Shown: one piece after another, positions 752 through 4,215 of the stretch
Numbering within the stretch: position 1 is the first letter of the stretch
Layout of the letters: the number at the start of each line of letters is the position of its first letter
Source: an uncultured Candidatus Actinomarina sp.
GTDB lineage: Bacteria > Actinomycetota > Acidimicrobiia > Actinomarinales > Actinomarinaceae
Direction of reading: 5' to 3'
DNA length: 64,000 nucleotides
NCBI GenBank assembly: GCA_902566515.1
Contig: CACFIX010000004.1
Location: forward strand, 4,092 to 68,091
Position numbers and translations under genes: made by a program
Notes under the pieces: model-generated
Databases searched by the model: none
What the model saw: the letters and a program-made list of their open reading frames with translations, nothing else
What the model was told of the DNA's origin: nothing

Positions 752-1765
752 GTGTATAATCAAAGTGTGGTAACAATTTTAGCTAAAATATTGGAGAAAT
801 TTACAATTGAGATTATCCCGTCTCTTCCAATGTTTATGAGGACACCTTTATATCTAAATATATTAAAGTTCAGAAAAGTAAAAGACAGATTGAGGCTTGA
901 TGTTACTAAAAAAAATCCTACTTTTGAAGATCGCTTGGATTATGCTCTAGACTCTCGAGCAAATTTAAATAATTCAGGTGAAAAGTTACACAATTTTAAT
1001 TCCAATGTCGCACTCGAAGAAATAAAAGATGGGCCAGTAAAAATTTATAAATTTATTCCACCAAATTCCAGTAAAGATAAATACGGAATCTATTTTCATG
1101 GGGGAGGATATTTTGCCGGAAGTATTACCTCACATAAAAATTTAATTTCCCAAATATCTTATGATTCAAATCTAATTGTTTATTTCTTTGAATATAGGCT
1201 GAGTCCAGAATACAATTTTCCATCTGCTCATGAAGACGCAAAACTTGCAGTAGATTTTATAAAAGCTCTTCATCCGGATGATCAAAGTATTTGGATAGGT
1301 GAATCTGCTGGCGGAGGTCTTGCTACAGGGCTAGTAGTAGATAAAGAGTATCTTGAAAAACCAGATAATCTAATACTTTTATCTCCATGGCTTGATTTGT
1401 CTGATAATTTTGAGGATAAGAAGTTTTTCAAAAACAGTGATGTGACGATAATTATTGAAGGAATGTATGAAGTAGGAGAATATTATGCAGGCGAATATGG
1501 AACAAAAAATCCAATATTATCTCCGGTATATGCTGATGTCGATGATTTTCCAGATGTACTAATTCAGGTATGCACCGATGAGCTTCTTTACAATGATGCA
1601 ATAGAATTTGTAAAAAAATTAGAAGATAAGAATATAAATGTTCAACTGCAAACTTGGGACGGACTTTGGCATGCTTGGCAATTCTTTCCAATTAATGAAG
1701 CATATGAAGCACTTGAAAAGATTGTAGAGTATATTAAATCTTTAGAGTTTCACTCTTCTAAATGA
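752..1765 (+). CDS. Alpha/beta hydrolase, HSL/GDXG esterase-lipase family
   Basis: HGGGY oxyanion motif, GESAGG nucleophile elbow, DELL Asp and LWHAWQ His; start codon uncertain. Confidence 0.9.
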   Translation: MYNQSVVTILAKILEKFTIEIIPSLPMFMRTPLYLNILKFRKVKDRLRLDVTKKNPTFEDRLDYALDSRANLNNSGEKLHNFNSNVALEEIKDGPVKIYKFIPPNSSKDKYGIYFHGGGYFAGSITSHKNLISQISYDSNLIVYFFEYRLSPEYNFPSAHEDAKLAVDFIKALHPDDQSIWIGESAGGGLATGLVVDKEYLEKPDNLILLSPWLDLSDNFEDKKFFKNSDVTIIIEGMYEVGEYYAGEYGTKNPILSPVYADVDDFPDVLIQVCTDELLYNDAIEFVKKLEDKNINVQLQTWDGLWHAWQFFPINEAYEALEKIVEYIKSLEFHSSK

Positions 1766-2496
1766 TGTAGGGCAAATCCATAAGGTAATTCAAGCCGATT
1801 TTCTTCCATTATTTTTTTGTCTTTAAGAATCTCATAGGTTTTCATATCAGTAGTAATTTCTCCATTATTTAAGATAATACTCCTGTCACAAATCTCTAGA
1901 GCCATTGGTAAATCATGAGTTACTAATATAAGTGAAATTTCCAAACTTTTTAGAATTTCGATTAATTCTCTTCGAGATGCTGGATCAAGATTAGAACTAG
2001 GTTCATCTAGAACTAGAAGCTCAGGTTCTGATGCTAAAACACTAGCAATAGCAACTTTTCTTTTTTGGCCAAAGCTTAAATGGTGTGGAGGCTTATCAAT
2101 GAAATTATCCATCTTAACTTTTTTTAATGCATTTATAGCATTATTTTCAGCTTCTTCATTTGAAAAGCCAAAGTTCTTAGGTCCAAACATAACATCTTCT
2201 AAAACTGTAGGCATAAATAATTGGTCATCTGGGTCCTGGAAAACTAAACCTACAGTTTTACGAATTCTGCTAATGTTTTGTTCATTATATAAAAAATTAT
2301 CAATTTTAATTTTTTCATCAAGATTTCCAAGAATTCCATTTAAATGAAGAATAAGAGTTGTTTTTCCTGCACCATTTGGACCAAGAACTGCAATTCTCTC
2401 GTTTTTCTCAATTTGAAAATTAATATTATGTAAAGCTTTAAATCCATCTGGATACTCAAAATTTAAATTATTTACACTTAGGTAGCTATTATTCAT
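1750..2496 (-). CDS. cbiO: ECF-type Co/Ni transporter ATPase (CbiO/NikO)
   Basis: GPNGAGKTT, FQDPDDQLF, LSFGQKRK, LVLDEP; follows a CbiQ-like gene. Confidence 0.88.
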   Translation of the reverse strand: MNNSYLSVNNLNFEYPDGFKALHNINFQIEKNERIAVLGPNGAGKTTLILHLNGILGNLDEKIKIDNFLYNEQNISRIRKTVGLVFQDPDDQLFMPTVLEDVMFGPKNFGFSNEEAENNAINALKKVKMDNFIDKPPHHLSFGQKRKVAIASVLASEPELLVLDEPSSNLDPASRRELIEILKSLEISLILVTHDLPMALEICDRSIILNNGEITTDMKTYEILKDKKIMEENRLELPYGFALHHLEE

Positions 2497-3257
2497 ATGA
2501 GAAATCTTTCCACAATAGTTGTAGCAATTGAAATAAATGATAAATAATAAAGAAGAGAAGACTTTTTAAATTCTCTTTTCTTAAGTTCAATTGAACCGTT
2601 GAAACCTCTGGATATCATTGAGTTATAAACTCTTTCACCTCTTTCATACCCTCTTATCAACATTGCACCAGAAGCATATGCAATTGGTTTTAATCCCCTT
2701 AATCCTTTTTGATCATAACCTCTTGATTTCATTGCAACTTTAACTCTTTTAAATTCATCAATAAAAACATCAATATATCTAATTGCAAAAGATAATATTG
2801 AAATTAACAACGGTGAAATTTTTAATTTTTGCAAACCATAAATAATCTCAATATTTGATGTAGTAGCAGTTAAAACAATTGCTAACGAAACACACAGTGT
2901 AATTTTAATTAATATTGAAATCATTTCATTGAAACCAGTTTCATAAATAGGCAATGAAAAAAATTCAAACATCACAGTACTATCTCCTTTACTTAAAAAA
3001 GGGAGAAATAAAGCAAACAATACAAAGGGTATGTCGATTGAAAGTCTTTTAAAATATGTAGATATTTTTATTTTAGATAAATACAACAACAATAATACAA
3101 CGAAAGTTTGTACAATTATTGCTAAATTTTTCTCAAGGCTTAAGAAAGCAATAGACAAGACAATTATAAATGTTGTTGCAATTTTGATTTCAGGTCTGGT
3201 GTTACTGAGAACAGAGTTTCTGTGAATTTCTAGATGATGCGAGTGTGTTGTTTCCAT
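2493..3257 (-). CDS. cbiQ: ECF-type Co/Ni transporter T component (CbiQ/NikQ)
   Basis: His-rich N-terminus, multiple TM segments, AMKSRG and ERGERVYNSMISRGF motifs. Confidence 0.88.
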   Translation of the reverse strand: METTHSHHLEIHRNSVLSNTRPEIKIATTFIIVLSIAFLSLEKNLAIIVQTFVVLLLLYLSKIKISTYFKRLSIDIPFVLFALFLPFLSKGDSTVMFEFFSLPIYETGFNEMISILIKITLCVSLAIVLTATTSNIEIIYGLQKLKISPLLISILSFAIRYIDVFIDEFKRVKVAMKSRGYDQKGLRGLKPIAYASGAMLIRGYERGERVYNSMISRGFNGSIELKKREFKKSSLLYYLSFISIATTIVERFLI

Positions 3258-3261
3258 ATAA

Positions 3262-3298
3262 AAATATGTTAATGCAAATTATTTGCAATAACATATTT
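3262..3298. promoter_or_regulatory. 37-bp inverted repeat with a Nur-box-like core (aTGCAA-N5-TTGCAA, 3272..3288) over the cbiQO promoter
   Basis: aaatatgttaatgcaaat-t-atttgcaataacatattt: 18-bp arms with one mismatch; contains a minus-strand TAACAT -10 (3266..3271) 8 nt before the cbiQ ATG. Confidence 0.7.
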
Positions 3299-3707
3299 AT
3301 TTACACTTTTTACATATACCTGAATATATAAAATGATGATTTATAATCTTAAAATTACTATCTTTAATTAAAATTTTGTTAATTTCCTCTTTAGTTTCTG
3401 TTTTCAAATCAGAGATTGAATTGCATGAATCACAAATAATATGGTTATTATCATATTCACTTTTTAAATAATATATTCCTGAACCATGAACTTGGTGAGA
3501 GTGTTCAACGATGTCTACTTTTTCTAACAACTCTAGAGTTCTATAAACAGTTGCCAAATCTATATTTTGATCTTTTTTCAATGCTAAATTATGTAATTTT
3601 TCAACAGTAAAATGTTCATGTCCCGCAGTTTCTAAAATGTTACAAATCACCTCCCGCGGACTAGTGATTCTGTGACCCCTTTTTTTTAATTCATTAACGA
3701 AATCCAT
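3297..3707 (-). CDS. Fur-family metalloregulator, Nur-like
   Basis: TVYRTLELL helix, EHSHQVHG, two CxxC pairs, HHFIYSG; ATG 3707 or TTG 3713 start. Confidence 0.9.
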   Translation of the reverse strand: MDFVNELKKRGHRITSPREVICNILETAGHEHFTVEKLHNLALKKDQNIDLATVYRTLELLEKVDIVEHSHQVHGSGIYYLKSEYDNNHIICDSCNSISDLKTETKEEINKILIKDSNFKIINHHFIYSGICKKCK

Positions 3708-3741
3708 ATTCAAGTATATTATAAGGTTTGATAAGGGACTT

Positions 3742-4215
3742 ATGAAAAGAAAATTTCTAAAGATACTTAATCGGTATAGTTTAATTTATTTACCTTTAGG
3801 ATGGGTTATTGGATTAGCAATTTTCTTTTTTGCATTTGAGCCTTCAGCTGTCTTATATTTTCTAAGTTTTTTTGTTCTTGGAATATTTTATTTTCTGATT
3901 TCATATACTTCAAATCGCATAATGGTTGACTCGTCTTATTCATATTCAGATTATGAAAATTCAATTATTGAATTTTACTCTGATTATTGACTAGGTTGTA
4001 CTGCTTCAAAATTCATAGTTGATGAATTTAAAAAAGAAAATCCAGAAGTTTTTTTTGTATCAATTAATGCTAGTAAACAAAAAGATCATCCATTTATTGA
4101 TGAGTACAAATTATTCAATACTCCAACATATGTTTTGATAAATAATAAAGGTGAAAAAATAGTCAGAAGAGTTGGCACATTTAATCCAAGCTATTTTAAA
4201 AAATATTTAGCTTAA
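3742..4215 (+). CDS. Membrane-anchored thioredoxin-fold protein with an in-frame UGA, probable selenoprotein (U83xxC86)
   Basis: Frame stays open for 74 codons past TGA 3988..3990: IIEFYSDY-U-LGCTASKFIVDEF...LFNTPTYVLINNKGEKIVRRVGTFNPSYFKKYLA*; N-terminal hydrophobic helices; stop overlaps the convergent csaA stop. Confidence 0.82.
4009..4029 (+). promoter_or_regulatory. Candidate bacterial SECIS hairpin
   Basis: Perfect 8-bp stem AAATTCAT/ATGAATTT, loop AGTTG with G at loop position 2 followed by U, 26 nt between the UGA and the loop. Confidence 0.6.

Follow-up and report, generated by a model that had tools for sequence, protein, structure and literature searches.

The window analyzed here is a stretch of 64,000 nucleotides on contig C4 of an 837-kb assembly (32% GC, 69% complete) of Candidatus Actinomarina sp. 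In the surface ocean, Candidatus Actinomarina ranks with the smallest and the most abundant of the free-living actinobacteria. At window positions 1750 to 3713, three co-directional minus-strand genes encode a Fur-family regulator and the Q and O components of an energy-coupling factor (ECF) metal transporter, NikQ and NikO. The locus raises the question of which metal the regulator senses and the transporter imports, and of where the substrate-capture (S) component of that transporter is encoded. The original prediction described a compact nickel-sensing module that represses a NikQO-type importer. This reading is supported by Nur-type residues in the regulator, by a conserved operator-like box, and by an S component gene preceded by the same box. 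On the basis of sequence comparison, we consider it likely that the locus is a nickel-uptake regulon of Candidatus Actinomarina under the control of a Nur-type repressor.

The features on which this reading depends are as follows.

3297 to 3707, minus strand: nur, Fur-family regulator of the Nur type (PF01475, E = 4.7e-27; 136 amino acids from the ATG at 3707).
2493 to 3257, minus strand: nikQ/cbiQ, ECF T (transmembrane coupling) component (PF02361, E = 1.8e-33; TIGR02454, 133.5 bits at a cutoff of 111.8 bits).
1750 to 2496, minus strand: nikO/cbiO, ECF ATPase or A component (PF00005, E = 1e-29; TIGR04521 and TIGR04520, E = 1e-69 to 1e-71).
3269 to 3291, no strand assigned: predicted Nur-box operator at nikQ, with a 9-5-9 structure that reads TTATTGCAA-ATAAT-TTGCATTAA on the gene strand.

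The gene identities and the 39-bp gap between the Fur-family gene and cbiQ (3258 to 3296) had been read from the sequence before and agree with the open reading frame (ORF) coordinates and with the Pfam and NCBIfam matches; the ECF ATPase models TIGR04521 and TIGR04520 are the top NCBIfam matches of nikO. Public gene calls start nur at the ATG at 3707, and an in-frame TTG at 3713 would lengthen it by two residues (ORF 3297 to 3713). The nikO start and the nikQ stop overlap in an ATGA, suggesting translational coupling of the two genes. In public annotation the regulator is called "Fur family" or "ferric uptake" and the transporter "cobalt"; the assignments proposed here are a better-founded annotation.

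A conserved 9-5-9 box at two sites in the genome

The published Nur box, tTGCaa-N5-ttGCAA, was defined by footprints that include the Streptomyces coelicolor nikM promoter, and Nur control of this ECF nikM promoter via the box is published for that organism (An et al. 2009, PMC2691836). In the nur-nikQ gap of the window, the core ATGCAA-ATTAT-TTGCAA was found at 3272 to 3288 (forward strand), and the conserved core TTATTGCAA-N5-TTGCATTAA is a 9-5-9 extension of the published box. A perfect box, TTATTGCAA-ATAAT-TTGCAATAA, lies 45 nt upstream of the ATG of nikM(N), the S component gene, on contig C2.

The 9-5-9 pattern has a chance expectation of 0.13 per window. A scan of the genome for the box, proposed earlier as a check, returned two strong sites only, in the nikQ gap and upstream of nikM: with a weight matrix built from orthologous sites, the two scored 34.8 and 33.1 bits, and the next best site in the 837-kb assembly scored 13.3 bits. 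No match to the matrix was found elsewhere in the window, including upstream of nur. In the genus genomes for which matches were listed, the pattern TTGCAA-N5-TTGCAWTAA occurred without mismatch only at the nikQ and nikM loci, and a reversed-pattern control had almost no matches in genus genomes. The exact pattern TGCAA-N5-TTGCA has three copies in the assembly, in the nur-nikQ gap, upstream of nikM, and at C7:47861. The last of these was rejected as a third site; it lies inside a 575-amino-acid ORF and has another spacer, and ∼0.85 copies are expected by chance. A recurrent match with one mismatch (C2:29846-29862) was also rejected, as it lies inside the dnaA coding sequence and recurs because that coding sequence is conserved. 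In this AT-rich genus, such a near-match calls for care when regulons are scanned by motif.

The box is present ∼45 nt before the nikM ATG in 30 of 30 nikM upstream regions of the genus (CbiM identity of 66 to 100%). It is also found 8 to 11 nt past the nur stop in every nur-nikQ gap examined (29 loci with regulator identities of 51 to 99%, plus locus L066), as expected if the palindrome is kept upstream of orthologous cbiQ genes. In genus alignments the half-sites and their TTA/TAA flanks are invariant and the 5-nt spacer is free, with the consensus nctTATTGCAAannntTTGCAaTAAgn at nikM and TtTTATTGCAAAtnaTTTGCATTAAnA at nikQ. Since invariant half-sites are combined with a free spacer, this is the pattern of an operator for a dimeric protein.

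The two operators are not identical. The promoter-proximal half-site at nikQ (window 3272 to 3277; loci L038 to L067) reads TTGCAT in nearly all genus genomes examined and TTGCAG in two, unlike the nikM sites, which are mostly perfect TTGCAA. This asymmetry may stem from overlap with the -10 element, or the nikQ operator may be deliberately weaker.

The gap had been described originally as being filled almost entirely by a 37-bp palindrome at 3262 to 3298. The inverted repeat and its core were confirmed, and the repeat can be extended further.

3257 to 3303, no strand assigned: extended palindrome around the operator, with inverted arms of 23 nt at 3257 to 3279 and 3281 to 3303 that are 87% complementary.

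As a functional unit, however, the 37-bp palindrome was rejected. Only its central 23 bp are kept in relatives, and the outer arms are lineage specific, with a complementarity of 2 to 5 of 8 in most other lineages. This bears on the proposal that the palindrome acts chiefly as RNA, that is, as a terminator or attenuator hairpin 3' of nur and 3' of the hydrolase gene upstream of nikM. Each box does follow closely on the stop codon of an upstream gene that runs in the same direction, and the window copy folds into a hairpin of -16.3 kcal/mol (z score of -5.1) followed by UUUUU. Against an RNA role, the half-sites are invariant instead of covarying, conservation does not extend to the outer stem, and many orthologs have no U-run and a fold of only -5 to -8 kcal/mol. 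Furthermore, the same sequence occurs at two unrelated loci and nowhere else, and in GC-rich relatives the box is either flanked by divergent genes or placed right behind a -10-like TATAGT. The sequence also equals a footprinted protein-binding site (PMC2691836). A chiefly RNA-level function is thus extremely improbable compared with a protein operator; a secondary role of the palindrome as a terminator after nur in this lineage is possible.

The S component is encoded on another contig

It had been pointed out that no CbiM or NikM gene adjoins nikQO and that the substrate subunit must therefore lie elsewhere or have escaped recognition. None is present in the window. The single CbiM/NikM gene of the genome is found at C2:56293-57231 and is preceded by the same box, as are its counterparts in 30 of 30 genus genomes sampled. 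It encodes a protein of 312 amino acids that starts with MHVPDG and matches PF01891 (E = 9.6e-50). The C-terminal domain is PDGLE (PF13190, 30.5 bits at a cutoff of 27), in place of a separate N subunit, and we refer to the protein as NikM(N). A literature search for a link between PDGLE and NikN returned nothing relevant. Aligned to 4M58, the nickel-binding TtNikM2, NikM(N) keeps Met1, His2, His67, Gln94, Gly101/102, and Asn109 of the planar metal site. With nikM(N) on contig C2 and nikQO on C4, the genes do not form one operon, and in every genus genome in which both were found they lie at different places, often on different contigs.

The regulator has the Ni-site residues of Nur and a changed M-site

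In S. coelicolor Nur (ScNur), the Ni-site consists of His70, His72, and His126, which are Nur specific and all essential, and the M-site consists of His33, His86, His88, and His90; of the M-site substitutions, H86A is silent but H88A and H90A each abolish DNA binding (An et al. 2009, PMC2691836). A HMMER alignment to the ScNur structure (3EYY) shows that the window protein keeps His33, His70, His72, His75, His90, and His126 and all four Cys; positions 86 and 88 are Tyr and Asn, respectively. The motifs EHSHQVHG, HHFIYSG, and YDNNH, singled out in the original prediction as retaining the Ni-site His and replacing two M-site His, are therefore present and were read correctly. Equivalents of His70 and His72 occur in nine of nine sampled orthologs and that of His126 in seven of nine; His75 is also conserved among Actinomarina orthologs. 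Position 86 is Tyr, Gln, or Glu in orthologs and is also variable inside the Nur clade. An extra His at position 31 is invariant across the Actinomarina orthologs.

The closest PDB sequence match of the window regulator is ScNur (E = 2.3e-19), and the ScNur cluster representative ranks 66th among 6615 family matches. For the second Fur paralog of the genome, Nur is only 13th among the PDB matches. In a family tree of 128 rows that included ScNur, Acidimicrobiia regulators, and Actinomarina orthologs, a clade of 49 rows contains ScNur and seven of the eight sampled Acidimicrobiia regulators. The His70/72/126 triad is present in 46 of the 49 Nur-clade rows and in 1 of the 70 rows outside the Nur clade and Actinomarina.

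Several observations speak against a Nur identity. Position 88, essential in ScNur as judged from H88A, is Asn, Ser, or Thr in all nine orthologs, and His88 is present in 113 of 119 other family rows sampled. Position 81 is Tyr or Phe in Actinomarina orthologs. Given these unconserved M-site positions, the sensing mechanism may differ from that of ScNur. In addition, the free quick tree sets Actinomarina outside the Nur clade, on a long, compositionally odd branch and without support. A tree constrained to join Actinomarina with the Nur clade is 40 log-likelihood units better than the free quick tree (P = 0.85 for the approximately unbiased [AU] test). The free placement was rejected on this ground, since by the AU test a better tree exists that the quick search did not reach. 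The group used for the constrained tree was named only after the free tree had been seen, and its result is supportive of Nur membership, not conclusive. Because the free tree separates Actinomarina from Nur, orthology rests on the constrained-tree likelihood together with the residue signature, the operator, and the gene context. The clustering with Nur that had been proposed as a check thus finds support in PDB rank, His triad, and constrained tree, but not in the free quick tree.

Alternatively, the His triad may be coincidental and the protein may belong to the Fur, Zur, or PerR type, sensing iron, zinc, or peroxide and controlling this transporter by chance. The free quick tree sets the clade near Fur-like sequences, the top NCBIfam matches (below threshold) are Fur models, Fur structures rank first in a fold search, and loss of the near-universal His88 may have changed the metal chemistry. 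Each of these arguments has a counterpart. The free placement is unsupported and fits worse than the one with Nur, and no Nur-named NCBIfam model was returned, so a Nur score was impossible there. The fold search used an AlphaFold2 model with a mean predicted local distance difference test score of 84, and all Foldseek matches in the PDB were Fur-family structures, with Nur at rank 19; it returned the whole family without discrimination within it, and the ranking was rejected as a test of Nur identity. A second paralog with a classical HHHH motif is available for iron or zinc duty, and the regulon consists of Ni/Co transporter genes only. A Fur, Zur, or PerR function is therefore very unlikely, and we read the regulator, from its sequence, as a member of the Nur lineage in which the M-site is derived.

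The second Fur-family paralog is encoded at C2:10012-10446 (plus strand) and has the classical HHHH-x-C-x2-C motif. Its PDB matches include Fur, PerR, and Zur at similar scores, and it is probably the iron or zinc sensor of the cell.

A more specific proposal is that Actinomarina Nur is a natural single-site or rewired variant of the Fur family, combined with graded, subunit-specific repression by a perfect operator at nikM(N) versus an imperfect one at nikQO. We hold this as a tentative idea that is rather doubtful at present. If the regulator has been rewired, nickel sensing may rely on the Ni-site alone or on a rebuilt His31/His33/His90/Asp101 site. A Nur without the near-universal His88 would serve as a natural mutant for asking which metal site senses.

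Nickel is favored over cobalt

The distribution of metal-dependent enzymes was surveyed in 41 genomes of the genus. Nickel superoxide dismutase (Ni-SOD; PF09055) with the canonical hook HCDLPCGVYDP was found in 33, and Fe/Mn-SOD in none, which answers the sodN/sodF question raised with the original prediction. Urease was not found in any of the 41 genomes, nor was cobyric acid synthase (CobQ) above the cutoff. As Ni-SOD is present and CobQ absent, nickel has an obvious essential client, while cobalt has none via corrin synthesis. Since the only recognizable SOD is a nickel enzyme, nickel supply would be tied directly to oxidative-stress defense.

The transporter could instead be a cobalt system, in which a cobalt-responsive Fur-family repressor controls a CbiMNQO cobalt importer. 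Pfam and NCBIfam name the parts Cbi, and the C-terminal extension of NikM(N) has weak matches (E = 1e-4) to NCBIfam models named CbiN. The planar N-terminal NikM/CbiM site can also bind Co2+ (PMC3945884). Furthermore, a search for the Ni-hook pattern found no Ni-SOD in this 69%-complete assembly; incompleteness is the likely reason, as the gene is present in most relatives. These points weigh against nickel, but the cobalt system would have to operate in a genus that shows no sign of corrin synthesis and depends on Ni-SOD. The best solved relative of NikM(N) is TtNikM2 (4M58, nickel; E = 3e-18), and the match to RcCbiM (5X3X, cobalt; E = 5e-9) is 30 bits lower. NikM(N) has a PDGLE N-type domain and no Pfam CbiN match, and the regulator shares its Ni-site triad with the nickel-specific Nur. 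The SOD and CobQ pattern, the NikM2-like S component, and the Nur-type Ni-site thus favor nickel. This evidence is indirect, and it makes nickel, with good probability, the metal of the system; a cobalt system is improbable.

Predicted promoters and mode of control

Promoter elements were sought by consensus reading.

3266 to 3271, minus strand: candidate -10 element TAACAT of nikQO, read from the sequence, which overlaps the operator at its 3' flank and precedes the ATG by 8 nt.
3718 to 3746, minus strand: promoter-like site of nur, TTCATA-17-TATAAT, which matches the consensus at 10 of 12 positions.

The earlier proposal that the palindrome covers the cbiQ -10 element fits the candidate TAACAT, and a hexamer of the TAAnaT type (TAACAT, TAAGAT, TAAAAT, TAAGCT, TAATAT, or TAAACT) lies 6 to 8 nt before the nikQ ATG in orthologous loci. 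At nikM, a TATAAT-like hexamer lies exactly 6 nt before the ATG, which places the downstream half-site at the -35 position. The promoter-like site of nur has no Nur box, and nur is therefore probably not autoregulated. All three genes have a -10-like hexamer 6 to 10 nt before the start (window 3705 to 3723 for nur and 3255 to 3271 for nikQ; locus L002, 7230 to 7250, for nikM) and no Shine-Dalgarno sequence. As nikQ and nikM lack a Shine-Dalgarno sequence, both transcripts are probably leaderless, and the spacing at nur suggests that its mRNA is leaderless or nearly so.

In the mechanism that we propose, when nickel is sufficient, a Ni-loaded Nur dimer would bind the 9-5-9 palindrome TTATTGCAA-N5-TTGCA(A/T)TAA. 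One operator, between nur and nikQ, would cover the -10 region of nikQO, and the second, perfect operator, on the other contig, would cover the -35 region of nikM(N); both promoters would be leaderless. When nickel is scarce, the repressor would leave both sites and all parts of the importer would be made together. The imported nickel would most likely serve Ni-SOD; no other superoxide dismutase was found in the genus. We infer repression, as opposed to activation, together with nickel as the effector, the promoter positions, the leaderless starts, and the link to Ni-SOD. The two-operator regulon appears to be the whole nickel-control circuit of Actinomarina, and the two operators would be clear markers of nickel stress in metatranscriptomes.

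Ancestry of the arrangement

Eight loci (L089 to L096) of other Acidimicrobiia, with 55 to 72% GC, were used for comparison. In seven of the eight, a Nur-like gene adjoins nikM(N)-nikQ-nikO, and in those seven a box of the form TTGCAA/TTGCGA-N5-TTGCAA/TCGCAA precedes the Met/Val-His start of nikM by 10 to 42 nt; the TTA/TAA flanks are often the same as well. We conclude that nur-[box]-nikM(N)QO is the ancestral layout and that Actinomarina split this operon: nikM(N) moved away with its own box, and the other copy was left before nikQO. The split is common to the genus genomes sampled.

The nur-nikM(N)QO clusters of the other Acidimicrobiia resemble the Actinomarina system in the clade signature of the regulator, in the box upstream of nikM, and in the presence of all four transporter functions. 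They differ in being one gene cluster and in having regulators that keep His81 and His88.

Comparison with known systems

In S. coelicolor, the Nur regulon comprises sodF, sodF2, nikABCDE, and nikMNOQ; Nur represses sodF and indirectly induces sodN. The Actinomarina regulator shares with S. coelicolor Nur (3EYY) the Fur-family fold, the equivalents of His70, His72, and His126 as well as His75, and all four Cys. The 6-5-6 form of the operator (TTGCAA-N5-TTGCAA), the targeting of an ECF-type nikM promoter, and an actinobacterial host with Ni-SOD are also common to both systems. In contrast, the sequence identity of the regulators is only ∼30%, the Actinomarina box is extended to 9-5-9, and the Actinomarina M-site has lost His88 and the ligand at position 81 and gained the invariant His31. 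Unlike S. coelicolor, the genus has no sodF, and no Nur box was found near sodN in the loci of six relatives, making this a regulon of uptake only. The SOD switch is a trait of the Streptomyces regulon and not of the protein family as such. The target operon is likewise divided, into nur-nikQO and a distant nikM(N), with promoters that look leaderless.

The transporter resembles Nik(MN)QO of Rhodobacter capsulatus and NikM2 of Thermoanaerobacter tengcongensis (4M58) in its Met-His-x-Pro-Asp/Glu-Gly start and in the planar-site residues from His67 to Asn109 (His67, Gln94, Gly101/102, and Asn109). As in R. capsulatus Nik(MN), M is fused to a two-helix N-type domain and is served by dedicated Q and O components. 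In contrast to these type-1 ECF nickel transporters, the gene of the S component lies away from those of Q and O, the N-type domain is recognized only as PDGLE, the N terminus of NikQ is His rich, and the nickel specificity is predicted from sequence. Separate encoding of the S component is normal in group-II vitamin ECF systems and not in metal ECF systems.

A literature search for Nur or nickel in Actinomarina returned nothing relevant. Taken as a whole, the system is a sound but unsurprising further example of Streptomyces-type Nur control. Its four variant traits are a split metal ECF operon with duplicated operators, the 9-5-9 box, the uptake-only regulon, and a regulator without His88.

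Additional features of the locus

The first 12 residues of NikQ (window 3222 to 3257, minus strand) are His rich, M-E-T-T-H-S-H-H-L-E-I-H (METTHSHHLEIH). A similar HxHxLxxH-like N terminus is present in four of seven NikQ ORFs of other Acidimicrobiia, e.g., GTHAHALTVHGH. On the cytoplasmic side, this stretch of the T component may bind metal or hand it on.

Downstream of nikO, an alpha/beta-hydrolase gene (752 to 1765, plus strand) is convergent with nikO (1750 to 2496, minus strand), and the 3' ends of the two genes overlap by 16 bp (window 1750 to 1765). On the other side, a small membrane ORF (window 3742 to 4215, plus strand) is divergent from nur; it has no Nur box and lies outside the regulon. 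This ORF stops at a TGA. When the TGA is read as selenocysteine, the frame runs on and encodes a thioredoxin-like domain that contains a U-L-G-C motif.

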